Source: Candidatus Jordarchaeia archaeon (lineage in GTDB: Archaea > Asgardarchaeota > Jordiarchaeia > Jordiarchaeales > Jordiarchaeaceae). From it: a stretch of 21,349 bases of DNA. Position 1 is the first letter of the stretch; the number at the start of each line of letters is the position of its first letter. Under the pieces are notes generated by a model. That model was not told the origin of the DNA, did not search any database, and worked only from the letters and a program-made list of their open reading frames with translations. The stretch is taken from NCBI GenBank assembly GCA_029856435.1, contig JAHQXB010000175.1, forward strand, positions 1 through 21,349, read 5' to 3'. Made by a program: the position numbers and the translations under genes. Shown here piece by piece: positions 2,639-18,678 of the stretch.

Positions 2639-2758
2639 TAAACTCCTACCCTTTCTATTCTCTTGAATTTGGGAAACTATTTAGGAACAGGGCAATAGAT
2701 AGACTTATGAATTGTCACTATAATGTTTTAAAAGTTATTTGTTGAGAGGATTTTGAAG

Positions 2759-4588
2759 ATGGGTAAAGAAACTTATGCTCCTCCAACTTTTTTAAAGTGG
2801 GCTAGCGGTGATGTGGCTAAGGATTATCCGGGAAAAACATTTATGATTAGCTGCAACGAGGCGATTGCCAGAGGTGCTATTGAAGCTGGTGTTAAGGTGG
2901 TGGCAGCTTATCCCGGTTCGCCCCTCCAATACACGATTGAGAGCTTAGCTATGGCAGCAAAAATCTATCCCTCAATGCATGTGGAATGGTCATCTAACGA
3001 AAAAGTTGCATATGATGTGGCCCTTGGGGCAGCTATGGCTGGTGTGCGGGCCTTGTCACCCATGAAACAGTTGGGTATGAATGTTGTCATAGATTCTCTG
3101 GTTCAGGGAGCTAATCTCGGCCCCTCAGGTTTGGTGTTGGCGGTAGGCGATGATCCGGGCGCTTTAGAAACTGAGAATGAAATGGATACCCGCTATTTGG
3201 CAAGGTACGCTGAAGTTCCGGTCATCGAGCCCACCTCAATACAGGAGGTTAAGGACTATACTTTTCAGGCCTTTGAGCTTTCAGAAAAGATTAAACTCCC
3301 AGTTGTGGTTAGAATTACGACTGGGCTGGCTTATCAGAGAGCTCCAGTCACTTTTGGAGAAATTCGCCACGATATAAGGGAGAGGGAAACAAGCTTTGAT
3401 AAGAATCGCCGCTGGCTTCTAGGAGACGCCTTCCCCTGGCCTATGAAGCCTTTCGGTGCAAAGCACATGAGGTTTCACGACGAATTGCCAGTGAGGGAGT
3501 GGGAGAATACTGTGGGTTCACTGCCTAAGGCTAGGTACACTGAAAAAGTTGTGGATGAGTTGCCTTGGAACACGCTGGTTTTTGGTAGGGAGGCCCGGTT
3601 TGGGGTGATTGCAGTTGGTGAGTGTTACCAAGAGGCAATGGAAGCCGTAAAGTTTCTGGGTGTAAAGGAAAAGGTGGCAGTTCTGAAACTGGTTACTTCT
3701 TATCCCCTGCCCCAAAGTAAGGTTGCTGAAATATTGGAGAAAACGGAGAAGGTTTTAGTGGTGGAGCAGATCGAACCCTTCGTGGAAACAGAGGTGCGTG
3801 CTTTCTCGGCAAACATGGACAGGCATGCCAAGATTTTTGGCAAACTTACTGGTGACATTCCCATCTGCAACGAGATTACTCGAAATATGATTGGACGGGC
3901 ATTGGGCAAAATGCTAAATGTAGCCTTCCTGCCTCGGGAGGAAGAGGAGAGAATCGAGAGGGGCAAAAATCTGCTGTACAGGGAACTGTTCTTTATTAAT
4001 GTTCCCAGATTCTGTCCCGGATGCCCGGAACTAGCCGCTGGGTTTGCCCTGAAGACTGTTTGCAATGAGCTTTACGGAGAGAACGTTACCTTCATTGGAG
4101 ATGTGGGTTGCTACGGTATGTTGGCTGTACCTCCACTTAACGCTTCACATGCAAACCTCAGCATGGGTTCTGGAATCAGTATGGCTAGCGGAATCTACCA
4201 CGCTGGTTCAAAAGATAAAATAATCGCGTACATTGGGGATAGTACATTTTTCCACTCGGGAATGTCTGCACTGGTTAATGCGGTTTATAACAAAGCTAAC
4301 TTGCTGCTCTACGTCCTTGATAACAGGACAACGGGTAATACTGGGCATCAGCCCCACCCCGGGGCCTTTGGTATTACCGCAACTAGGGAACCCACTAAGA
4401 TTTTGGACATTGAGGAGATAGTGAAATCCTTCCAAGTAGACTACGTTAAGGTGGTAGACCCATACAACTTTGAGGAAACCACCAAAACCCTCAGAGAAGC
4501 CTTAGAGGTTGAGGGTGTGGCTGTGGTAATAGCTAGGCAAACCTGCGCGCTTCTGGCACAAAGAATAAAGGGGTTGATTGCTAAATGA
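2759..4588 (+). CDS. iorA: Indolepyruvate-type 2-oxoacid:ferredoxin oxidoreductase alpha subunit (TPP), lacking the usual C-terminal ferredoxin domain
   Basis: NEAIARGAIEAG, YPGSP, EWSSNEKVA, CPGCP, GDVGCY and TPP motif GDSTFFHSG...LDN; ends ARQTCALL...IAK. ATG 2759 follows GAGAGGA (the track starts at TTG 2753). Confidence 0.92.
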   Translation: MGKETYAPPTFLKWASGDVAKDYPGKTFMISCNEAIARGAIEAGVKVVAAYPGSPLQYTIESLAMAAKIYPSMHVEWSSNEKVAYDVALGAAMAGVRALSPMKQLGMNVVIDSLVQGANLGPSGLVLAVGDDPGALETENEMDTRYLARYAEVPVIEPTSIQEVKDYTFQAFELSEKIKLPVVVRITTGLAYQRAPVTFGEIRHDIRERETSFDKNRRWLLGDAFPWPMKPFGAKHMRFHDELPVREWENTVGSLPKARYTEKVVDELPWNTLVFGREARFGVIAVGECYQEAMEAVKFLGVKEKVAVLKLVTSYPLPQSKVAEILEKTEKVLVVEQIEPFVETEVRAFSANMDRHAKIFGKLTGDIPICNEITRNMIGRALGKMLNVAFLPREEEERIERGKNLLYRELFFINVPRFCPGCPELAAGFALKTVCNELYGENVTFIGDVGCYGMLAVPPLNASHANLSMGSGISMASGIYHAGSKDKIIAYIGDSTFFHSGMSALVNAVYNKANLLLYVLDNRTTGNTGHQPHPGAFGITATREPTKILDIEEIVKSFQVDYVKVVDPYNFEETTKTLREALEVEGVAVVIARQTCALLAQRIKGLIAK

Positions 4589-6204
4589 GTTTGAAACCTA
4601 TAGGTAACCAGTGGAAAATAAACAGAGAGTTATGTCAGGCCTGGACTGGAAGCAGGGCTCCCTGCCATGCAGCCTGCCCTGCAGACATAGACATTCCAAA
4701 ATATGTAACTTTAATATCCATGGGAAAATTTAGGGAGGCCCTAGAAATTATTGTGGAGAGGATGCCCTTCCCCGCCATCTGTGGACGAATTTGTCATCAT
4801 CCTTGCGAAACATATTGCACAAGAAGCGACATAGATCAACCCATAGCAGTAAGGGATTTGAAACGCTTCCTAGCCGATTTTTACTCACACGAGTTGCGGC
4901 GGGAAAAAATTGAGCCAAAAAGAGAAGAGAAGGTTGCAATAGTGGGGGCGGGCCCCGCCGGACTAACAGCGGCCTATGATTTGCTAAAGCGGGGCTATAG
5001 GGTAACAGTTTTCGAAGCTTCAAAAAAGCCCGGAGGAATGATAACAGGCTGCCTCCCCGATTACCGAATTCCCAGGGAAGTCGCCGAAAAAGAAATCAAT
5101 CAGATTCTTGAAACCGGAATAGAGCTGAAAACTGACACTCCCATATACGACATTGATAATCTCTGGCGTGAGGGGTTCAAAGCTATACTAGTGGCTATAG
5201 GTGCCCAGAATCCTCGAAGAATTAAACTGGAAGGAATGGAGAGTAAAGGAGTCATTTACGGACTGCCATTCCTGAGAGAAGTAAAGATGGGAAAAAGCGT
5301 AGAGCTGGGGGAACGAGTAATTGTCGTCGGTGGGGGGAATGTGGCAGTGGACTGTGCTCAATGCGCGGTTAGACTGGGAGCAAAAGAGGTTTCCATGGTC
5401 TGCTTGGAATCACGTGAAGAGATGCCAGCCCACGAATGGCAGTTAGAAGAAGCAGTAGAAGAGGGAGTCAAAATATGTCCCTCATTGGGACCCAAAAGAA
5501 TCCTCACAAAGGAAGGCAAAGTGGTAGGTTTAGAAACCATAGTTTGTAGCTGTGTATTTGACTCCCAAGGAAATTTTTCGCCACAATTCGTTGAAGGCAC
5601 AGAAACAGTCATGGAAGCCGACACCATAATCATAGCCATCGGTCAGGAACCAGACTTTAAAGGATTTGAAAAATTAGACAAAACGCCACTCAAAACCTTC
5701 AAAGTTAACCCCGAGACCTTGGAAACCAACATACTGGGAGTTTTTGCAGCTGGCGACTGTGTTAATGGTCCTGCAAGCTTTGTGGAGGCGGTGCAAACCG
5801 GACACATGGCTGCAGAGAGCATAGACCGCTACCTAAAGGGCGAAAACTTAGTTGAGGGAAGAAAAGAGGTCAGAAACAAGCTTCCCGAAGTGGTAGTGGT
5901 TCCCCGGGGCATAGTTAGGAAAAAGAGGGTATCCATGCCCGTTTTAGGTCCAGAGGAGAGGAAGAAAAATTTTGAGGAGATACTGTTGGGATATTCGGAG
6001 CAGTTAGCGGTTATGGAGGCTAAACGCTGTTTAAACTGTACCATATGTGGCTACTGTATTGAAAACTTTGGGTGCATAGCATTGATTTGGGCAGACAACC
6101 CCAATCTCCAGTATCGGTCTCCCGAAATAGATTTGGCTTTGTGCGTGGGCTGCGGTGTCTGTCCCCAGATATGTCCCCATAAGGCAATAGAGGAAATTAG
6201 GTGA
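4585..6204 (+). CDS. GltD/NfnB-like FAD/NAD(P) oxidoreductase fused with an IorA-type 2x[4Fe-4S] ferredoxin domain
   Basis: APCHAACP and CGRICHHPCETYC Fe-S motifs, IVGAGPAGLTAA (FAD), VVGGGNVAVD (NAD(P)), GDCVNGP, EAKRCLNC, then CTICGYCIENFGC and CVGCGVCPQICP. ATGA overlap with the iorA stop. Confidence 0.9.
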   Translation: MSLKPIGNQWKINRELCQAWTGSRAPCHAACPADIDIPKYVTLISMGKFREALEIIVERMPFPAICGRICHHPCETYCTRSDIDQPIAVRDLKRFLADFYSHELRREKIEPKREEKVAIVGAGPAGLTAAYDLLKRGYRVTVFEASKKPGGMITGCLPDYRIPREVAEKEINQILETGIELKTDTPIYDIDNLWREGFKAILVAIGAQNPRRIKLEGMESKGVIYGLPFLREVKMGKSVELGERVIVVGGGNVAVDCAQCAVRLGAKEVSMVCLESREEMPAHEWQLEEAVEEGVKICPSLGPKRILTKEGKVVGLETIVCSCVFDSQGNFSPQFVEGTETVMEADTIIIAIGQEPDFKGFEKLDKTPLKTFKVNPETLETNILGVFAAGDCVNGPASFVEAVQTGHMAAESIDRYLKGENLVEGRKEVRNKLPEVVVVPRGIVRKKRVSMPVLGPEERKKNFEEILLGYSEQLAVMEAKRCLNCTICGYCIENFGCIALIWADNPNLQYRSPEIDLALCVGCGVCPQICPHKAIEEIR

Positions 6205-6220
6205 AGGAGGATTCTAATCT

Positions 6221-6844
6221 ATGGGTGAAGAGTTGAACCTCATAATTTGCGGATTGTCTGGTCAGGGAATCATTCTTACTGAAAGGTTGCTCGTGATAGC
6301 CCTCTCCCAGATGGGAAAAAATGTTCTATCTGCGGATGTTCCCCCCTGGACACATAGGAACGCTATCACTTACTGTTACATTAGGACTGGCGAGGAACTC
6401 TACTCTCCCAGGATTCCGGAGGGAGGAGCAAACCTGATAGTTTCCTTTGAACCACTTGTGGCGCTCCAAGTAGCCTCAATTTATGGAAGCCGGGAAACCC
6501 TCGTAATCACTAATGATTATCCTATTGAAACCCGGGGATTATCTCGCGACGGGCTAAGAGATATGTCTGGACGGCTGGCACACAAGTACCCCACAATGGA
6601 GCAAATATTAGGCTACCTGAAAAATTTGGAGATTACAAAAGTAAAGACCATTAGTGGCACTGATGTCTCTCTACGAGAAACGGGAAGTGCAAGGGCGTTA
6701 AACATGGTAATGTTGGGAGCAGCATACGCCACAAAAATGATTCCCGTAAAACAAGAAGTTCTAGAGGAAGAAATCATAAAGAATACTCCCCCAGGAACCG
6801 GCGAAATAAACTTGAGAGCCTTCAGAGCAGGAGCGAACCTCTAA
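6221..6844 (+). CDS. iorB: Indolepyruvate-type oxidoreductase beta subunit (POR gamma-like)
   Basis: ICGLSGQGII, ANLIVSFEPL, LNMVMLGAA and INLRAFRAG motifs; GGAGG upstream; position in the operon. Confidence 0.88.
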   Translation: MGEELNLIICGLSGQGIILTERLLVIALSQMGKNVLSADVPPWTHRNAITYCYIRTGEELYSPRIPEGGANLIVSFEPLVALQVASIYGSRETLVITNDYPIETRGLSRDGLRDMSGRLAHKYPTMEQILGYLKNLEITKVKTISGTDVSLRETGSARALNMVMLGAAYATKMIPVKQEVLEEEIIKNTPPGTGEINLRAFRAGANL

Positions 6845-6870
6845 AACCTCAAACTTGAAACCAAAAAATA

Positions 6871-6927: not shown

Positions 6928-7938
6928 CTAACTTTCAATCTTGTTTTTCTCAATTTTTATGCCCGTAGTTTTTTTGAGGAGCTTTCTTATTCGGTTTGTG
7001 AAGTTTTTTTCTTCGGTTTTTGTTTCTATTGTTACTTTTAGGAGTGGGTAGACGTATTCTTGGGTGTAGTCCGCGAGCATGTTGTTTTTTAGCTGTTCTA
7101 TGTGGTATAGGATGGTTTCCTCCTCGACTCCTATCTTTTTTGCCAAGGTTTTTATTGGGGTTATTCCTTCCTTCTCTAAAATTTTAACTATTTGATAGTT
7201 TGTTGAGTTTACGAGAGGTTCAAGAATGTCTATGGGTCTCTCTTCTATTTCCTGTTTTATTTGTGTTTGGAGTTCGTCTATGGCGTTTATCACTTTTTGG
7301 CCTACCTCAGACCTTATGTTCTGGGGTACTTTTCCCCTTTCTAAATCCTTTATTATGGAGTCTGAGGGTGCCTTGTAAACCCTTATTTTCATAACGTCAA
7401 ACTTTTTCTCCCCATTGCTCTTTTGGGATACCAGCTCTAATCTTTTCAAGTGGGAGAGAATTGATGGTTCCACTGTTTTTCCCTCTCTGAGTGCGGCGAG
7501 GCTCTTCCATGTTTCTTCGTCTGCTAATACCCGTATCATGAGGTGCGTCCTGTCTACTGTTTTTTCTCTTTTCTCCAGTTCCTTGTAGATTTCTCGGATT
7601 TTGACTTCTTCGCCACTATCCAAGAGTTTAACTATTTCTATGGCTTTGGTTTTAAGGAACGCCTTGTAGGCTACTCCCATCTCCTTCTCTTCCAGAAGCA
7701 TCGCTATACATATCTGGTTATGGGATTTGGGGGCCATTCCCGAGTAGTAGCTTACAACTTTAATGTTCCCCATCCTAACTTCAAGATACTCTCTGGTTTC
7801 CCCCGTGGAGTGAGCAAAGTACAACTGTTGAGCCAAACCCTCCGTTACTCGTGTTCCATCCGTTATGTACATATATTCTGGTTTTAGCACCACACCCTCA
7901 ACTGCGTCAAAATAGGTGACGAAAACTCCCTTAGGCAT
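6928..7938 (-). CDS. Longin/uDENN-like N-terminal domain protein with C-terminal winged helix-turn-helix
   Basis: The N-terminus GVFVTYFDAVEG...IKVVSYYSG...QICIAMLL follows the longin strand pattern. The C-terminus YQIVKILEKEGITPIKTLAKKIGVEEETILYHIEQL is an ArsR/Lrp-type wHTH. GAGGGA RBS lies in the 16-nt gap after the GTPase gene. Confidence 0.65.
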   Translation of the reverse strand: MPKGVFVTYFDAVEGVVLKPEYMYITDGTRVTEGLAQQLYFAHSTGETREYLEVRMGNIKVVSYYSGMAPKSHNQICIAMLLEEKEMGVAYKAFLKTKAIEIVKLLDSGEEVKIREIYKELEKREKTVDRTHLMIRVLADEETWKSLAALREGKTVEPSILSHLKRLELVSQKSNGEKKFDVMKIRVYKAPSDSIIKDLERGKVPQNIRSEVGQKVINAIDELQTQIKQEIEERPIDILEPLVNSTNYQIVKILEKEGITPIKTLAKKIGVEEETILYHIEQLKNNMLADYTQEYVYPLLKVTIETKTEEKNFTNRIRKLLKKTTGIKIEKNKIES

Positions 7939-7954
7939 CCGTTTCCCTCGGGTG

Positions 7955-9013
7955 TCAACTCACATTTTTAAAGATTTCTGAAATTTTTTCCAGGAACTTT
8001 TCAACCGATTTACGCAATTTCACCTCATCAAACGGTTTATTGCCGGGAAACGCAGTCAAAAACGCCACTTCTTTATTAACACTTTTAACCAAAATTAATA
8101 AACCTTCTGTCCTAAGAATAATGGCATCTGGAAAACCTTTCTCACGTTCCTCCAGAATTAAAGCAGCATGTGTTATTATATTCCCCAACAGTGTATCCTT
8201 AACTTCACTTTCTTTAAAAGTTGACGCAATGACAAAACTACTCACTTTATCCAAAACCACACTTCCCACGGAGCTCAAGCTACGGTCTACATCCACAAGC
8301 AGAGATGTAAGACTGTTCAAAAATTTTTCCGGATACACTTTCCTTGCTTCCACACCCAGCAAAATATCCTCTTTGAGAAATCTCTTATATTTGTCTATCA
8401 CCTCAATTATGGCTTCGTCAGACCTCTTCCAGTAATCCACACGCTCACCAGTAGCGCTAACACGATCCATAATTGAAGTGCCGTAAACAGTGATTCTCTT
8501 CACCATCTTTTCCACCCGCCTTCTCTCCTGCAAATCCTCGGGAAGATACTCCTGGTACAGTTCAGCTGGTCCAATTAGAATATTCCTTATCTCATCTGGT
8601 GGTAGGTGGACTTTCAAATCCTGTTTGTGCGCAAAAATAACTGGAAAAGCTTGAGGGGAATACTTGGCAACTCTGCTAATGGATCTCCAAAATTCCTTCC
8701 TCGCTAGGCGAAGCCTACTAGGATCGCCCGAATCAACCACATAGATAAAAATATTCGCCTTACTGAAAAGAGACTCCTCCCTCTCTGGCCGGTAATACTC
8801 ATCAAACATTCTCTCCTGCCCACCGGTATCAAAAAACTTGCAGAGATAACTCCCATGCCTAAAATCGGGATGAACCTTAATTAGCATAGTGGGCTCCATA
8901 CCTGCAAGGTCCTTTGCGTTCAATCCGTAGATTACTTGAAGAATTATGGATGTTTTACCAGCACTGGTGGGCCCCATCACCAATATCTTAAGACGCTCCT
9001 CCATCACCAACAT
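7955..9013 (-). CDS. Rag/Gtr-like small GTPase with C-terminal roadblock domain
   Basis: G1 GPTSAGKT, G2 EPT, G3 DTGGQE, G4 HKQD, G5 TSIMD. The ~125-aa C-terminal domain has a helix-strand-strand pattern (VVLDKVSSFVIAS...AIILRTEGLLILVKSVNKEVAFL). Alternative ATG at 9004. Confidence 0.82.
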   Translation of the reverse strand: MLVMEERLKILVMGPTSAGKTSIILQVIYGLNAKDLAGMEPTMLIKVHPDFRHGSYLCKFFDTGGQERMFDEYYRPEREESLFSKANIFIYVVDSGDPSRLRLARKEFWRSISRVAKYSPQAFPVIFAHKQDLKVHLPPDEIRNILIGPAELYQEYLPEDLQERRRVEKMVKRITVYGTSIMDRVSATGERVDYWKRSDEAIIEVIDKYKRFLKEDILLGVEARKVYPEKFLNSLTSLLVDVDRSLSSVGSVVLDKVSSFVIASTFKESEVKDTLLGNIITHAALILEEREKGFPDAIILRTEGLLILVKSVNKEVAFLTAFPGNKPFDEVKLRKSVEKFLEKISEIFKNVS

Positions 9014-10370
9014 CCTCCAAAGCTCTCCGAATCCTCTTTCTAGCCTCCTCCAACTGCTTAAGCCTCCTCCTTCGGAACGACGCAGCCTCCCCAGAAATAT
9101 AGAAACGACTCACAACCAAGCCAAAAACCGAAACCACAGTAACTGCACCAATAATCAGTGCAGCAGAAGATGAACTGGGCTGATTTCCGCTGCCAAGCAA
9201 GAAGGCAATTAAAAACATTTCAAAATAAGGTGAAACCGCTGGAGGAACATAGTCCAAAACCAGCACAGCCAAAGCAATTTCCCAAGAGTCCTGAACTCTA
9301 TCCAAATTTTCACTGTTACCTTTGAATCGAATAGTTAATGTTGAACTATCAATTTTCAATGAAGCATTATTCCACGTATTATTTTGTAGATTAGAAATAA
9401 TTCCTCTCCAAGCACCATTTGACCAGTACCATACACTAATATTCTCATTACTTGTAAAATTGCCGGTTCGGATACATAAATTGCTATTAGATGCAGTTAG
9501 GGGAACATTTGTCCACTGGAGCTCTAAATCCAACTCATAATTTGGCACGGTATAATTTACAACAACCCAAACAAAAGTACACCGCAACTCAGCATCAGGC
9601 CCTTTAGGAATCCTCAACCTGACTCCTGCCTGGAGATCCTCCAAATCAGACCAATTCCAGGACTCAAGTGTATCTGGATTCCGATCCCACCTACTTGAGA
9701 AATTCACATAACCATCAGAATAAACGTTAAAGGTACTTCCTTGCTGTGCAGGTAGTGACCAACTTGGACTATAAAGCATGGGAACCACAATACCATATGT
9801 AGAGTTCGACAAAAGATGGAGTTTAACTGTTACGCAAACCTCTACATAATTTATAATCGCTCCCTCAATTACTGGAGGTTCTTCCAAGTTGTACAAATCC
9901 ATTTTCCAAGTGTTTGTCTTATTTAAAAAAACATAGGAGGTGTCATCGTCAGATTCGTTGCAACACTCCCAATTTGGTTTTTCAGCGGGATTAGGGTAAA
10001 GTTGTTCAGTTCCAGTTTCACCATTTGGCACAAGTGTATGCGTAGCTGAAGGGTTAGTGTTGCTCTCGGTAAGTGTATCATAGGTGCTAGTATTTTGGTC
10101 AGCTAGGTTTGGCCAGTGGGAGTGGAAACCCACACTGGGGGACCCATCTACATTGGTATCATTACGATTCGGATAAAGGTATATCATATCCTTGGGGTGG
10201 CTGGGTACGCTCTGACCACTGCTAAAAAATCCCGGTTCAAGATGCAGAACATTATCTGGTGATGTGAATGAACTTATCATTATGAGGGAGAAAGCGAGAA
10301 CCAGTGCTAAAGCAGCTGATGTCCCCAATAGTTTCTTACTTTTTAGTTTTAACTTCCTTCCATAGGGCAT
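8988..10370 (-). CDS. Membrane-anchored cell-surface glycoprotein (beta-rich ectodomain)
   Basis: Basic N-terminus plus hydrophobic signal/anchor (ALALVLAFSLIMI), Asn/Trp/Thr-rich ectodomain with at least 12 N-x-S/T sequons, C-terminal hydrophobic segments (YFEMFLIAFLL; ALIIGAVTVVSVFGLVV) and a basic tail (RRRRLKQLEEARKRIRR). Its stop overlaps the GTPase start. Confidence 0.85.
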   Translation of the reverse strand: MPYGRKLKLKSKKLLGTSAALALVLAFSLIMISSFTSPDNVLHLEPGFFSSGQSVPSHPKDMIYLYPNRNDTNVDGSPSVGFHSHWPNLADQNTSTYDTLTESNTNPSATHTLVPNGETGTEQLYPNPAEKPNWECCNESDDDTSYVFLNKTNTWKMDLYNLEEPPVIEGAIINYVEVCVTVKLHLLSNSTYGIVVPMLYSPSWSLPAQQGSTFNVYSDGYVNFSSRWDRNPDTLESWNWSDLEDLQAGVRLRIPKGPDAELRCTFVWVVVNYTVPNYELDLELQWTNVPLTASNSNLCIRTGNFTSNENISVWYWSNGAWRGIISNLQNNTWNNASLKIDSSTLTIRFKGNSENLDRVQDSWEIALAVLVLDYVPPAVSPYFEMFLIAFLLGSGNQPSSSSAALIIGAVTVVSVFGLVVSRFYISGEAASFRRRRLKQLEEARKRIRRALEDVGDGGAS

Positions 10371-10662
10371 GGGTAATCTACCTAAAAACTGTTCACGTGT
10401 AGAAACTTTTTGTGAAGAGACCCCTTGGGCTACTTTTTCCTTCGCGGAAAATATTATATTTTATCGTTAAGCTACGAATTTTAAGATAACTACGTGTTAA
10501 TATTGTTCCCTCTCGGTAAAAAAATTTTCTATCGCCATTTTTAATTAAAAATAGATTCGCTTTTAACATAAATAACTCGAAAAACCCAACCCCCCATTCA
10601 CATCAACCACAAATTTAACACTCCAAGAATTCAAAGACACACCACAAAAAGGACAACTAAAC

Positions 10663-10669
10663 TTATATA
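10663..10669 (+). promoter_or_regulatory. Candidate TATA box for the M24 peptidase gene
   Basis: TTATATA after an A-rich tract, about 90 nt upstream of ATG 10757. A second candidate TTTAAA lies about 20 nt downstream. Confidence 0.3.
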
Positions 10670-10756
10670 CTCAATAAAAAAGGTTTAAACTAATAGTTAC
10701 ATTTTTAGATGCCTCTCATTGGAGGAGAACAGACTCAAAAAAAAGGGTGAATTGTA

Positions 10757-12019
10757 ATGGCTAAAAAGGGAGAGGTAACCAAGAAAAAATGGGAAACAAT
10801 ACCCTACCCAGAATACAGGAAACGTATCCAGACAGCTAGAGAACTACTAGCCAAACACAACATGGACGCCATGATCCTATTCTCTCCTATAAACTGGCGA
10901 TACTATGGCGGATGGACAGATGTGGCCCAAATGCACAATTGGGTGTGGCGTTCCTGCATGATTATACCCCGAGACCACAACCCAGTAAATGTCTGCCACG
11001 GAGCCTTTTATTGGCAGAATCTTTTAACAACCTATGTTGAAGACAACCGCTTCTGGAGTGAAACTGAGGGCGGACAATTATTGGCCTCCTTCCTAACCGG
11101 GCAAAGGGTGCCCAGCGAGTTTTGGCAATTACTGCTAGACACCCTAAAAGAACTAAAACTAGATAGGGGAACAATCGGGATTGAGAAGGGTCCTGACATA
11201 GACACCTACCTTTCGTTTGAAGAATACGACCTCCTAAACAAAAGATTGCCAGATGTGAAAATCGTAGCCGCAGACCCTGTCATATGGGAGCAGAGGAGTG
11301 TGAAAACCCCATACGAAATTGAAATCATCCGTGAAGGCTGCAAGAGATCAGTCAAAGTTTTGAGGGCGGCCTTTGAAACCATTAAACCCGGAGTAAACGA
11401 GCTTGATGTACATAGAGCCTTCTGGAGAGCCTGCGCCGAACAAGACCTGCTGGAATCACCAAACTGTTCAACCTGGCTCTGCTGGACAAGCAACGCTGAG
11501 GAGGAGGGAGGAGTCTTCAGGTGGATAACTGGACCTGTAGACCGCATCATAAAGGAGGGAGATATGGGAATCAGTGACTGCGGACCCACCTATAAGGGCT
11601 ACCAGATGGATTGGCAAAGAACATTCTACGTAGGCGACCCGCCAAAGAAACAGGTGGAACTAAGCAAATTAGCCATAGAGGGGGAACAGGCAGCCATAGA
11701 CGCCTTGGTACCAGGGGCAAAGGTGGGAGACGCCCACAAAGCCTCAGTTGAAGCGTTAAAGAAGAAGGATCCTATGCAGATGCACATAATAAACTTTGTA
11801 GGGCACGGCATGGGCCTGTCAAACCATGAGCCACCCTGGATTATACCCGACAATCCCACATTAGTAAAGGAAAATATGGTGTTTTGTGTAGAAGTGGGAG
11901 CGTTTGATTTGGAAATGCGGCTGGTGGGGGCTATGCCCGAAGACATTGTACTGGTGACAAAGAAGGGCCCCGAAATTTTAACAAAAGACTTCCCACGAGA
12001 CCTATGGATAGCCAAATAA
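10757..12019 (+). CDS. M24B family metallopeptidase (Xaa-Pro peptidase/creatinase fold)
   Basis: Creatinase-like N-domain. All metal ligands are present: SDCG...MDWQRT, GHGMGL..HEPP, CVEVG, PEDIVLV. GGGTGA RBS. Confidence 0.92.
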   Translation: MAKKGEVTKKKWETIPYPEYRKRIQTARELLAKHNMDAMILFSPINWRYYGGWTDVAQMHNWVWRSCMIIPRDHNPVNVCHGAFYWQNLLTTYVEDNRFWSETEGGQLLASFLTGQRVPSEFWQLLLDTLKELKLDRGTIGIEKGPDIDTYLSFEEYDLLNKRLPDVKIVAADPVIWEQRSVKTPYEIEIIREGCKRSVKVLRAAFETIKPGVNELDVHRAFWRACAEQDLLESPNCSTWLCWTSNAEEEGGVFRWITGPVDRIIKEGDMGISDCGPTYKGYQMDWQRTFYVGDPPKKQVELSKLAIEGEQAAIDALVPGAKVGDAHKASVEALKKKDPMQMHIINFVGHGMGLSNHEPPWIIPDNPTLVKENMVFCVEVGAFDLEMRLVGAMPEDIVLVTKKGPEILTKDFPRDLWIAK

Positions 12020-13999: not shown

Positions 14000-14123
14000 A
14001 CTTCGCTAAATATTTACTCCAATGTAAAATTAAAGATTACTAAATCACACCACAACACACATAAAAATACCCTTCTAGAAACTAGCTGGAAAATTGAGAA
14101 ATTATTAACACCATTTAAACCTA

Positions 14124-14438
14124 TAGATTTTCTCATTAATTTTTTCCTAAACCTCACTTAACCCTAGGTTATTTTAGGCTTCTTTCCCCAAAAAAAGCGG
14201 AAAAAACCATGTTTCCTGGAAGCGAGGCACTGTTAACCTGGCGTCACTTGTTGTGGGCAGGTTCGTGGTGTGTAGGGAATGTCTTGTTTAAGCCTAAATT
14301 CGGCGTTTAAGGCAGAGGAAAATACTCATTTAAGACGTAGAAGGTGGGGAAAAGTTACAAAACAGCACTACCTCTCAACAGGAGACGCTGAGGGAACTGT
14401 GCCGGAAGCGAAAAGAAAAAAATTAAATGGAAAGCTTA
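14124..14438 (+). mobile_element. ~130-bp MITE copy 3, interrupted by a nested element
   Basis: Starts TAGATTTTCTCATTAATTTTTTCC and ends AAAAAATTAAATGGAAAGCTTA, with TA at 14122-14123 and 14439-14440. It is 129 bp after removing the 178-bp insert and one 8-bp TSD. Confidence 0.88.
14226..14403. mobile_element. 178-bp IS6-family-like MITE nested in MITE copy 3
   Basis: Perfect 8-bp TSD GGAAGCGA (14218-14225, 14404-14411). Ends GGCACTGTTAACCTGGCGTC / GGCACAGTTCCCTCAGCGTC (14/20). GGCACTGTT and 8-bp TSDs are IS6/IS26 hallmarks. Confidence 0.85.
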
Positions 14439-14604
14439 TACTAACATGAATTCTCACAATATTGCCTTTTCCACCACCTCTTTTTTCTCCACTTCTAATT
14501 CCATTTAGGTTTTTGGCAACGCTGACAGGAAAATAATTAGTCCCTACTACTTCGTGAAGTTGACTCCCCTATCTCATAATTCTGTAATTTTCTAATTTAT
14601 TGAA

Positions 14605-14850
14605 TCAAAAACGGAGTATTTTGGATTTGAACGGTTGACAATGGCTCTCCTCAATAATCTGTATCAAATCAATGAGCATATCCTGTGCCTCGGTCAACAA
14701 TTTTTCATCTCTCCTGTCAGAGGCTAGCAAATCGTCTATGAAGGACTCAAGTTCTCGCTTAAAAGACAAAAGGTCAAAATTAACCTTTTCACATCGAGCC
14801 CTTTGATACTTCCTACGCATCTCCTCAATACCTAGTTTGGGGCGGCTCAA
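14605..14850 (-). CDS. Hypothetical small helical protein
   Basis: 81-aa ORF, TTG start with GAGGT about 8 nt upstream, charged amphipathic composition, no recognised motif. Confidence 0.5.
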   Translation of the reverse strand: MSRPKLGIEEMRRKYQRARCEKVNFDLLSFKRELESFIDDLLASDRRDEKLLTEAQDMLIDLIQIIEESHCQPFKSKILRF

Positions 14851-15077
14851 TTTTTCCCTACCTCTTCTTTTGTATTCATACCTACATAGTGCAAGGTTAT
14901 TTAGTCCACAAAAAAATTTTCATAATCACGTCGTTTATTATTTGCATAAGGGGTGTAAAAAGCTTTTAGTGCAGCATTTTTGGATCGCGGTTTTTGGCCG
15001 GTTGTTGTCGGGTTTTTTGGCACTAAAGTCATTATTCCCTCCTTTTCCAAATGGAATCTTTTTGGGCCATATACATA

Positions 15078-15207
15078 TAGAGTTTCTCATTAATTTTTTT
15101 CCTAAACCTATCCTTAACCAAGGTTATTTAAGGCTTCTTTTCCCAAAAAAGGCGAAAAAAACCATACCTTCTGGAAGAGAAAAGGAAAAAATTAGATGGA
15201 AAGTCTA
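15078..15207 (+). mobile_element. ~130-bp MITE copy 2
   Basis: Starts TAGAGTTTCTCATT and ends GATGGAAAGTCTA, with TA at 15076-15077 and 15208-15209. About 10 substitutions and 1 indel versus copy 1. Confidence 0.9.
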
Positions 15208-15741
15208 TATTATTCGATAAAAAATCTTGGCGTAAGTGAGTGTTTTAGTGGAGTTTGTAAACAATCCGCTTCCTTTTTCCACTCTGAGTTTACAACCCAC
15301 TTACCGTTATACTTCAGTTTTAATCTTAACTTTTCATATGCCTATTTTTCCTTCAATAATTTTTCCGTGGACATAAAGATACCTAAAATATCTATACAAA
15401 ATATACTGTAAACATTTGCGAATCAGAATAAAAAATTCTGAATAAGAGTATGAAGAATAACCAGCTTTACAATGATATTGATAAGCCAATAAAAGAAATA
15501 CAGAAGATGCTCACCTTGCGAGTAACCCTATTGAGGTGCCATTTTGTCCCCATATATTATGATTTAGCGTCACTTTATAATTTTTAAACTGCAGAGTGTG
15601 TGGGTTACGTTTTAAAATGGTGCTTCTTTTTAGTAAAAAAATTGGTGGTTGAATATTTTTTCTGTGTGGCTAGTTCTCTTCTTTAATTGTGTGTTCGTTT
15701 TCCAAATTCTCTGGGAAGTCCCCTGCTTCCTACTGATAACC

Positions 15742-17776: not shown

Positions 17777-18238
17777 TCAAGTACTTTTATTTTTCTTGCC
17801 AGTCACCTGTTGTATGTATTTTTCTATAGTGTTTAGGGCTAACTCGGCGGTTCTAATAGCGTCTTTTGCTTCGTCCTCTCTGTAGGATTTGCGGGGTGAG
17901 ACCACTGTTCTTGCCCTGATTGCGGGGTAGCGGGTTGCTGTGTATTGTTCCATTAGCCAGGAAGTGTCGCGGAAAACGTTTCTTAGTTCTTCCACCCAGT
18001 CTTGAGGCGCGTGGGTTATCACTTCAGCGGCAAAAAGGGCACCCACATCATGCTCGTATACCTGCGTTAGGCCCTCGCAGGCGAGGGTTGCCTTCATAGC
18101 CTTTTCAACGCACTGCTGTGATTCGAAAACTGCTTTGTGAAAAAACTTCTGTTTGAGAAGCTCTCTTGCCGCTTGCAAGTCAACTTTAGCTTCTTCAATT
18201 AGCTCGTACGCTAATTTGATTGCCAGATCTGAGGTCAT
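17777..18238 (-). CDS. HEPN domain protein (MNT-HEPN pair)
   Basis: AVFESQQCVEKAMKA, EHDV, YTATRYP and EAKDAIRTAE are typical of the thermophile-type HEPN. ATG 18238 forms an ATGA overlap with the MNT stop (the track starts at 18250). Confidence 0.9.
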   Translation of the reverse strand: MTSDLAIKLAYELIEEAKVDLQAARELLKQKFFHKAVFESQQCVEKAMKATLACEGLTQVYEHDVGALFAAEVITHAPQDWVEELRNVFRDTSWLMEQYTATRYPAIRARTVVSPRKSYREDEAKDAIRTAELALNTIEKYIQQVTGKKNKST

Positions 18239-18678
18239 TTCACCACCCATATGCCGCTTCTCGGATAGTACTTGATTTTGCCAGCTTCAACATCCCTAAA
18301 TATTTCCTGGATTCTCTTCTCAAAAAATCCCGAGGGGTCGAAGAGAACCTGGTATCCTGAGGCTACTCCAAGAACCAGTGGAAATCTTTTGTCAACCATG
18401 TAGTTGAAGTCGTCTGGGGTGAAGGGCAGGCAGCGAACCGCCCTTTTAAGAAGCCATGTTAACTCAGTATCAACATTAATCACTCTTCTCTCCATGGTGG
18501 AGTAGTCCTCCTCAATAATTGCCAGAATGTCAATGTCGCTGGTGGGTTTCTCCCTCCCCTGCGCAAAAGAGCCGAAGAGCACCAAGGAAACCAAACTATC
18601 CTTAAACTCTTCCCTGAATGATTTTGCTATAGTACTCTTCTCCTGTTCTGAAAGCACTTTAAAAACCTCTTTCTTCAA
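18235..18678 (-). CDS. Minimal nucleotidyltransferase (MNT)
   Basis: LVLFGSFAQG...SDIDIL (GS...DxD); directly upstream of the HEPN gene. Confidence 0.92.
   Translation of the reverse strand: MKKEVFKVLSEQEKSTIAKSFREEFKDSLVSLVLFGSFAQGREKPTSDIDILAIIEEDYSTMERRVINVDTELTWLLKRAVRCLPFTPDDFNYMVDKRFPLVLGVASGYQVLFDPSGFFEKRIQEIFRDVEAGKIKYYPRSGIWVVK

Follow-up and report, generated by a model that had tools for sequence, protein, structure and literature searches.

Contig JAHQXB010000175.1 of a Candidatus Jordarchaeia archaeon, whose entire 21,349 bp form the window analysed here (genome of 3.5 Mb), carries three adjacent minus-strand open reading frames (ORFs; Table 1) that encode a surface glycoprotein (P0001), a divergent Rag-like GTPase (P0002) and a protein with a longin domain and a winged helix (P0003). 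On balance, we lean towards the prediction that this trio is one operon for a membrane-coupled small-GTPase switch. In this scenario, P0001 would be an N-glycosylated surface protein with a variable ectodomain outside the cell and a basic helical tail as its sole cytoplasmic part. P0002, which is predicted to have an intact P-loop, the catalytic Gln, an HKxD motif and a roadblock C-terminal domain (CTD) and no membrane anchor of its own, would be held at the membrane together with P0003 by the P0001 tail. P0003, a putative longin plus winged-helix protein of the C9orf72/NPRL2-like WD-x3-G class, may provide a longin domain that serves as a platform or as a regulator setting the nucleotide state of P0002, and the GTPase switch would be coupled to what state the ectodomain is in (ligand, contact or clustering). 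We infer every physical contact in this scheme, as well as the direction of signalling and the output; P0003 may act as a platform, an exchange factor for guanine nucleotides (GEF) or an MglB-like GTPase-activating protein (GAP).

An earlier reading of the letters alone (the sequence-only reading) had described three co-oriented genes with an overlap and a 16-nucleotide (nt) gap, as the ORF listing bears out, and the synteny recurs. All four uncut sister loci have the same order, overlap and spacing of the three genes, which argues that the arrangement is not due to chance, and each of them has an overlap between the gene 1 stop codon and the beginning of gene 2. At one of these loci (L037) none of the other genes of the window is nearby and the trio is intact. 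The P0003 orthologue of a fifth sister genome lies at the very end of a 6,790-bp contig. Database labels of the homologous proteins are 'Freyarchaeota', Jordarchaeum and Jordarchaeaceae, that is, Jordarchaeia-type Asgard archaea.

Judged by its predicted architecture and its best family match, P0002 is Rag-like, but divergent. In Pfam, Gtr1_RagA (PF04670; 61.2 bits, cut-off 22) ranks above Arf (53.8 bits) and SRPRB (28.6 bits, cut-off 25), and when a family profile of 21 P0002 relatives was compared with the PDB, Gtr1/RagA chains outranked all Arf chains (65 bits for Gtr1, 52.5 for the best Arf). Little or no variation is seen in the P-loop, the switch-I Thr, DxxGQ and H-K-Q-D, with G14, G19, K20, T42, G65, Q66, H129, K130, Q131 and D132 unchanged in 21 aligned relatives. 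The G4 motif is of the HKxD type, a hallmark of Rag GTPases, and not N/T-K-x-D; PDB Gtr1 chains show HKMD at the aligned place. The TSIMD of P0002 was likened by eye only to ATSIWDE of Schizosaccharomyces pombe Gtr1, and HMMER left the two unaligned. In the AlphaFold model (pTM 0.75 for the whole protein), the predicted topology of the CTD is helix-strand-strand-helix-strand-strand-strand-helix. The full-length model has Gtr1, Gtr2, RagA and RagC as its top Foldseek matches (E 1e-12 to 1e-9), followed by the Lokiarchaeal Rag-like structures 8yl2, 9m28 and 8zla (E 4.5e-9 to 1.4e-8). The Pfam score, the CTD topology and the Foldseek ranking thus bear out the Rag-type GTPase with a roadblock-like CTD that had been proposed from the letters. 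Another gene of the same genome outscores P0002 on Gtr1_RagA. A P0002 paralogue of 37% identity occurs in two genomes of the same genus, and none of this type was found in the window's own genome. In a quick tree of 66 G-domain rows, the branch that leads to the trio GTPase clade is long (1.22). The clade falls outside the high-scoring Rag-like clade and away from the Loki-type trio clade, on the side where longin::GTPase fusions, small Arf-like proteins and a GTPase from another family (f15) are placed; the deep forks of this tree have 83-91% SH-aLRT and no bootstrap, and the deep nodes are weak.

The predicted N-terminal fold of P0003 is that of a longin domain, with Z scores that do not tell the subtype. 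Its topology is strand-strand-helix-strand-strand-strand-helix-helix, at a pLDDT of about 57-85 per 10-residue block (mostly 75-85); the model is confident for residues 1-123 only, falls below 50 at 124-243 and 275-313, and has a mean of 53. In an all-against-representatives structural search, the best match was the Lokiarchaeal longin domain 8yqg_B (Z 11.7, 123 residues, 3.1 Å), followed at Z 8.5-10.5 by VAMP7, adaptor sigma/mu subunits, Lst4, TRAPP and folliculin-complex longins; many longin domains in all scored Z 8-10.5, and roadblock proteins gave Z 7.8-9.5. GATOR1 and SEAC chains lead the whole-length Foldseek search (E 3e-4, TM-score 0.27), a ranking that is unreliable at the mean pLDDT of this model. 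Residues D11 and G15, in the turn between strands 1 and 2, are invariant, and G15-V16 is found in 16 of 16 orthologue clusters in place of the G-P motif of PMC12290439. In a protein atlas, the clusters nearest to P0003 are unnamed (359-377 amino acids (aa), Promethearchaeota or Thorarchaeota, scores 0.93-0.94) and gave no functional name.

P0001 has the build of a bitopic membrane protein, with a hydrophobic N-terminal segment (14-36) as putative anchor or signal, a transmembrane helix (401-425) and a basic tail (426-460), and in this the membrane-anchored ectodomain protein with a basic cytoplasmic helix that had been read from the sequence is confirmed. A Lys/Arg-rich start precedes the first hydrophobic segment, and the region of about 365 residues between the two anchors has 12 N-x-S/T sequons. 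Since the tail is rich in Arg and Lys, the positive-inside rule predicts that it is cytoplasmic. Tail identity to the window is 57-80% in 12 of 12 aligned relatives (the top regional mean, 0.66), and ten positions are invariant in a 13-relative alignment (G427, E428, S431, R433, R436, L440, R444, R446, L451 and E452). The ectodomain stretch 161-260 is 28-38% identical in 10 of 12 aligned relatives and 59-66% in two of the same type. Compared with the closest sister genome, P0001 is 46% identical, P0002 79%, P0003 87% and the flanking genes 92-98%. By these alignments, the tail is the best-conserved part of a fast-evolving membrane protein. Closer to the membrane, the module 276-370 has numerous invariant columns and is 48% identical over 98 residues to a Bathyarchaeia-labelled protein; it has no Pfam family. 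We found 19 relatives of P0001, the named ones mostly of Jordarchaeia type; searches with the whole protein gave no Pfam or NCBIfam match and no PDB sequence match at E<=1, and its best protein-atlas score (0.88, to unnamed viral clusters) is below a meaningful level. Ectodomain types do not track GTPase similarity among the sisters: one has 79% identity in the GTPase and 46% in the transmembrane protein, and another has 66% and 67%. This pattern suggests that the exposed part undergoes cassette-like exchange or diversifying selection.

A parallel trio of Loki type is found elsewhere in the phylum. Among the 30 best Gtr1_RagA loci from 121 genomes, a gene of the same longin family lies just downstream in six, all of one family. 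The four loci that were extended (4/4) all read surface protein, Rag-like GTPase and 290-aa longin protein. The surface protein at these loci has 1212-1362 aa, 25-31 sequons, one transmembrane helix and a long cytoplasmic tail, and the GTPase of about 400 aa reaches 139 bits on Gtr1_RagA and matches Robl_LC7 too. This Loki-type longin gene is present at 23 public loci, labelled mostly Promethearchaeota, of which 19 have at least 1300 nt upstream and could be assessed for the GTPase. An HKxD GTPase (about 399 aa) lies 4-22 nt upstream of the longin gene in 18 of these 19. Just upstream of the GTPase, 16 of 17 testable loci encode a single-transmembrane protein with 1-38 sequons (18-38 if full-length), and in 7 of 16 the stop of the surface gene overlaps the start of the GTPase gene (gap -4 or -1). 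Between the two trios, sequence identity is 21-26% over the domain of the longin proteins (E 7e-8 at best) and 34-38% for the G domains.

The longin domain of P0003 belongs to a wide family. A profile of the N-terminal domain matches 229 cluster representatives at E<=0.001 among 1.84 billion proteins, nearly always at the N-terminus, and matches are present in 299 of 400 genomes of the phylum. The pattern [WFY]D-x(2-4)-G falls within the first 40 residues of 98 of the best 149 relatives (with G-P in 17 of those 98), and the wider family typically reads W-D-x3-G followed by A, T, V, P or I. Among the 74 scanned of the 149 listed relatives, the longin domain matched no Pfam family at E<=0.001, NPR2/NPR3 included, and it is found combined with TackOD1, TPR, SIR2 and winged helices of TrmB or other type. 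The closest P0003 paralogue (358-396 aa; 31% identity in the longin domain) lies 12-29 nt upstream of a longin::GTPase fusion gene in four of four fetched loci from two families of the order. Across the order this paralogous module consists of a pyrE-like gene, the longin-winged helix-turn-helix (wHTH) gene, whose product carries WDNRLGA, the fusion gene (280-284 aa) and a gene for a coiled-coil protein (106-110 aa). Where the longin match is far from the N-terminus, a hydrophobic helix precedes it by about 85-105 residues in seven of seven examined proteins; such ectodomain-transmembrane-longin fusions have large LamG/DUF2341 ectodomains where scanned. Genome G036, of another family, encodes a 454-aa protein (L132 5321-7733) that has seven hydrophobic segments and whose N-terminus is weakly longin-like (FDEVKGF; E 3e-5, 14 bits). 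Its gene is directly upstream of that for a 308-aa GTPase, the best-scoring P0002 relative outside its genus.

Further members of these families stand in other settings. In sister genome G005 (L038 2034-8970), the 37% P0002 paralogue has a TackOD1-AsnC/Lrp HTH regulator on one side and a 302-aa protein on the other. Three longin::GTPase fusion genes follow in tandem, and a Rab-like GTPase and KaiC-like genes are close by. On another contig of the window's own genome (C142, L009 1130-2527) and in a sister genome (L073 1405-2841), the zinc-ribbon output domain TackOD1 (106.6 bits) is joined to the same longin domain in one protein, and in L073 genes for membrane-anchored proteins are next in line.

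Several results weigh against a dedicated, membrane-coupled switch. Full-length P0002 orthologues were found in four of five other genomes of the same genus and in none of 55 more distant ones (61 genomes searched), and outside the order a GTPase-motif ORF lies within 1.5 kb of a related longin gene in only one of 19 loci. The surface proteins of the Jordarchaeial and Loki-type trios have no detectable similarity, and the two trio GTPases are not sisters in the G-domain tree, at weak deep nodes. Common descent of the two trios finds no support in this tree, and they may have been assembled independently. The N-terminal domain of P0003 matches no Pfam family at E<=1, NPR2/NPR3 included. It also has no invariant or near-invariant Arg in residues 1-123 (17 sequences, 16 orthologue clusters), and an arginine finger in this domain was considered and rejected. 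At position 73, 9 of the 16 clusters have R, 5 have S and 2 have H (H in the window), and position 55 is K in 11, N in 3, T in 1 and R in 1, the window's own protein, in counts for which the column equal to NPRL2 R78 is not fixed by residue-level superposition. The sequence-only reading had pointed to the longin-domain GAPs of eukaryotes (NPRL2/NPRL3 of GATOR1, FLCN-FNIP); because no Arg is conserved in the longin domain of P0003, an arginine-finger GAP mechanism of the GATOR1 or FLCN type is unlikely on this alignment. One complex prediction, of full-length P0002 with P0003 1-128, gave no confident model of contact between trio proteins (0.01 and 0.00 against a mark of 0.32), a result that counts neither way.

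The self-contained module of anchor, switch and regulator first envisaged for these genes therefore stands in part. Synteny, the parallel trio, the fusions, the conservation of the tail and the NPRL2/NPRL3-like domain plan speak for it as a matter of gene context; on the other side, a GAP of the arginine-finger kind is unlikely, the winged helix is acidic and the GTPase falls outside the high-scoring Rag-like clade in a tree with weak deep nodes.

The same genes could work from the inside out, which we consider unlikely. The GTPase-longin pair would then place the surface protein and mark a membrane site (a pole, a protrusion or a vesicle), with the P0001 tail as a cargo signal, in a manner that might resemble MglA/MglB polarity control or the GTPase-directed sorting of eukaryotes. 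The predicted roadblock domain of P0002 matches MglB chains (E 2.5e-6, TM-score 0.67-0.77 normalised to the target), and SNARE, adaptor sigma/mu and TRAPP longins are among the best fold matches of P0003 (Z 9-10.5). The hypervariable stretch of P0001, with its two types, is what would be expected of exposed cargo under diversifying selection, and Asgard Rab- and Rag-like GTPases have been suggested to specify membrane areas, as far as the available part of that paper goes (PMC10933270). The present evidence does not discriminate the direction of information flow, and neither the operon nor its flanks contain a coat, SNARE or cytoskeletal gene.

It is quite improbable, and less probable than an inside-out module, that P0003 is a GTPase-controlled transcription factor, which would bind DNA via its winged-helix region(s) and be released or sequestered by a GTPase recruited to a receptor tail. 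The sequence-only reading had P0003 as a longin-like protein ending in a wHTH; the longin fold holds, and the wHTH is assigned from matches that are all under curated cut-offs (Pfam HTH_24 20.6 bits, cut-off 21.9, and HTH_AsnC 18.8 bits; NCBIfam TIGR01884 33 bits and ArsR/SmtB 25.9 bits, of Csa3-HTH and ArsR types). It does not strictly end the protein, as about 30 basic residues follow. PF13412 is precomputed on two of the 16 orthologue clusters. In favour of DNA binding are the Lrp/AsnC-, ArsR- and Csa3-type nature of these matches, the NCBI name of one orthologue (winged helix-turn-helix transcriptional regulator), the basic middle region and C-terminal tail (+3 to +10), and the 37% paralogous GTPase that adjoins a TackOD1-AsnC-HTH regulator in a sister genome. 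The middle region itself (124-192; net charge +3 to +9 in the 16 clusters) aligns, 19 residues short, to the ArsR-like winged helix of the paralogue, at a place where the model is of low confidence. Against it, the net charge of the winged helix is -1 to -7, negative in every one of the 16 clusters, and all but one of these clusters also have an acidic third helix. The winged helices of NPRL2 and NPRL3 serve as protein contacts in GATOR1. As described in the part of the source available, the winged-helix repeats of these two proteins are not known transcription-factor domains (PMC3747258). Because the winged helix of P0003 is acidic, the direct transcriptional output that had been raised for it is doubtful.

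That the GTPase and longin protein alone form the functional pair, with an unrelated membrane protein that merely shares the transcript, is very unlikely: no homology is detectable between the surface proteins of the two trio types, the paralogous longin-wHTH and GTPase pair of the order has a pyrE-like gene upstream and no adjoining membrane protein, and the ectodomain evolves much faster than its partners, but the overlap of gene 1 stop and gene 2 start in 4/4 sister and 7/16 Loki-type loci, the tail identity of 57-80% against 28-38% in the hypervariable stretch and the ectodomain-transmembrane-longin fusions all count against this reading.

With the ATG at 9013 as its start, gene 2 overlaps gene 1 by 26 nt, and with the ATG at 9004 by 17 nt. 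The latter ATG has GGAGG 8-9 nt upstream, at a Shine-Dalgarno (SD)-like spacing, and gives the 349 aa of the database form, so the start at 9004 is the probable one by these signals. The 16-nt spacer between genes 2 and 3 (7939-7954) contains an SD-like GAGGG. A TATA-like AAAATATAATATT about 85-95 nt upstream of gene 1 was noted by eye only and is a candidate promoter element.

The trio is flanked on one side by an indolepyruvate-type oxidoreductase set and on the other by genes for an M24 peptidase and a PolX polymerase. The oxidoreductase set (2753-6844) and the M24, prolidase-like peptidase (10757-12019) are amino-acid catabolism genes. The oxidoreductase set adjoins the trio in four of five sister genomes and the fifth has other flanks, so this linkage is not conserved; the M24 peptidase is also kept on the other side in at least one sister genome (locus L035). 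Farther along the window, genes for an NTP_transf_2 nucleotidyltransferase and a HEPN protein (17777-18678, minus strand) overlap by 16 nt, which is the usual layout of an MNT-HEPN toxin-antitoxin pair. A stretch of about 1.7 kb (14000-15740) has no ORF of 130 aa or more and no tRNA or Rfam match, and its GC content of 36-38% is the minimum of the window; tRNA and Rfam scans of the whole window gave no matches.

Table 1. Positions of the trio, its domains and associated elements (window coordinates unless a locus is named)
Feature	Position	Strand	Basis
P0001, bitopic surface glycoprotein, 460 aa, candidate sensor or anchor	8988..10370	-	ORF, hydropathy, sequons
P0001 N-terminal signal or anchor segment, residues 14-36	10263..10331	-	Kyte-Doolittle 19-residue windows up to 2.38
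P0001 hypervariable ectodomain stretch, residues 161-260, two types	9591..9890	-	alignment of relatives
P0001 conserved ectodomain module, residues 276-370 (95 residues)	9261..9545	-	common to proteins of other archaea
P0001 predicted transmembrane helix, residues 401-425	9096..9170	-	hydropathy up to 2.47
P0001 basic, putatively cytoplasmic tail, residues 426-460 (35 residues)	8991..9095	-	conserved; G-E-x2-S-x-R-x2-R-x3-L-x3-R-x-R-x4-L-E
P0002, divergent Rag/Gtr-type GTPase, 352 aa	7955..9013	-	Pfam, family profile, fold model, Foldseek
P0002 G domain, residues ~7-200	8414..8995	-	GPTSAGKT, T42, DTGGQE, HKQD
P0002 predicted roadblock C-terminal domain, residues 229-351	7961..8329	-	AlphaFold model, pLDDT 75-94
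P0003, longin plus winged-helix protein, 336 aa, NPRL2/NPRL3-like domain plan	6928..7938	-	fold model, sequence matches
P0003 N-terminal longin domain, residues 1-123, F10-D11-x3-G15-V16 motif	7570..7938	-	predicted fold
P0003 middle region, residues 124-192, basic; may be a first winged helix in truncated form	7363..7569	-	charge, paralogue alignment
P0003 putative winged helix-turn-helix, residues ~236-305, acidic	7024..7233	-	sub-threshold matches
Divergent intergenic region, 386 nt, AT-rich	10371..10756	.	by-eye reading
T-run, possible archaeal terminator	6861..6870	-	~60 nt past the gene 3 stop codon; by eye
Paralogous longin-wHTH/longin::GTPase module	L072 4109-6385, contig C55 of the same genome; also L070, L071, L074		gaps 12-29 nt

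In Asgard archaea, few eukaryote-like genes are as numerous as those for Rag-like GTPases and for longin and roadblock proteins, and we know of no established pairing there between GTPases and their regulators. Published work on Asgard archaea already covers Rag-like GTPases, roadblock proteins and longin proteins, 'NPRL2-like longin' families among them. We found no description in the literature searched of an Asgard operon that joins a surface protein, a Rag-like GTPase and a longin protein, and preprint supplements may hold neighbourhood tables. According to the available part of the study of the cultured strain MK-D1 by Tran et al. (PMC10933270), GTPase genes of that organism are generally not in operons with roadblock or longin genes, so that partners are hard to predict. 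The trio, the paralogous pair and the Loki-type version name a matched GTPase, longin partner and membrane protein for joint assay. If the contacts are true, they would bear on how, before there were lysosomes, a Rag-type switch was linked to a membrane, and on whether the longin partner is a GAP, a GEF or a platform that works without an arginine finger. A bolder proposal, which we regard as doubtful, is that the direct coupling of a transmembrane surface receptor to a Rag-like GTPase and to a longin regulator of the C9orf72/NPRL2 class is a recurrent design in Asgard archaea, built from separate genes here and in Loki-type lineages and from fusions in other places. The Rag-GATOR/Ragulator logic of eukaryotes, with its membrane anchor or sensor, its GTPase with a roadblock domain and its longin regulator, would then descend from an archaeal cell-surface signalling device using a GAP or GEF mechanism without an arginine finger.

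The trio resembles the eukaryotic Rag nutrient switch, with a mode of action that we infer. Like the Rag/Gtr proteins that work with GATOR1 and Ragulator/EGO, P0002 has Gtr1_RagA as its best match, an HKxD motif, a predicted roadblock CTD and a full-length fold of this kind, and it similarly has no anchor of its own and would need a separate membrane-bound component, as Ragulator/EGO provides. NPRL2 and NPRL3, which with DEPDC5 form GATOR1, consist of an N-terminal longin domain and two or more winged HTH repeats, as given in the accessible text of Levine et al. (PMC3747258), and P0003, with its predicted N-terminal longin domain and putative winged helix, would follow the same plan. Rag GTPases are obligate dimers of two paralogues that pair through their roadblock domains. 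The differences are that the operon has only one GTPase gene and not a RagA/RagC-type pair, that the G domain of P0002 falls outside the high-scoring Rag-like clade in the quick tree, that no DEPDC5, mTOR or LAMTOR homologue is in the operon, that P0003 has neither an NPR2/NPR3 Pfam match nor a conserved Arg finger, and that the candidate anchor is a transmembrane glycoprotein and not a lipidated scaffold.

The longin GAP complexes C9orf72-SMCR8 (CSW) and FLCN-FNIP, together with the 'GP-motif' Asgard longins of PMC12290439, offer a second comparison. C9orf72 has W33-D34...G38-P39, which sets the spacing of the GP motif in the portion of the source available (PMC12290439), and the family of P0003 has W/F-D-x3-G-[P/A/V/T] between strands 1 and 2 at this same spacing. 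P0003 itself reads F-D-x3-G-V, without the Trp and the Pro, and has no DENN domain and no Arg finger. In the MglA-MglB system of Myxococcus and Thermus, a small GTPase and its regulatory partner of roadblock or longin fold are likewise encoded side by side, and the CTD of P0002 resembles MglB in its predicted fold; in the trio, in contrast, the partner encoded on its own combines a longin domain with a winged helix, and the operon includes a membrane glycoprotein. SRbeta and SRX (SRalpha) are also a membrane-associated GTPase and longin pair. P0002 passes the SRPRB cut-off, and SRX/SRbeta structures are among the fold matches of P0003 (1nrj_A at rank 3 in Foldseek; 5ck3, 2go5 and 6frk in the structural search). 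However, SRbeta has its own transmembrane helix and no roadblock domain, P0003 lacks the SRP54-type NG domain, and P0002 scores far higher on Gtr1_RagA than on SRPRB.

Among Asgard proteins, LokiRagO (8yl2) and LokiRagM (8zla, 9m28) share the Rag-like architecture of P0002 at an identity of just 17-19%. The longin domain of P0003 has its best fold match in 8yqg, a Lokiarchaeal Roadblock-Longin protein, at an identity of just 8%. An operon reported by Liu et al. for a LAMTOR1-like protein, a Rab-like GTPase and a DENN protein also joins a small GTPase with longin- and roadblock-type regulators in Asgard archaea; within the text available, its GTPase is stated not to be of the Rag family and no membrane glycoprotein partner is described (bioRxiv 10.1101/2020.10.19.343400). 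Fusions of NPRL2-like longin domains to domains of two-component type are described in the accessible part of the same preprint, and the TackOD1 fusions found here agree with that description.

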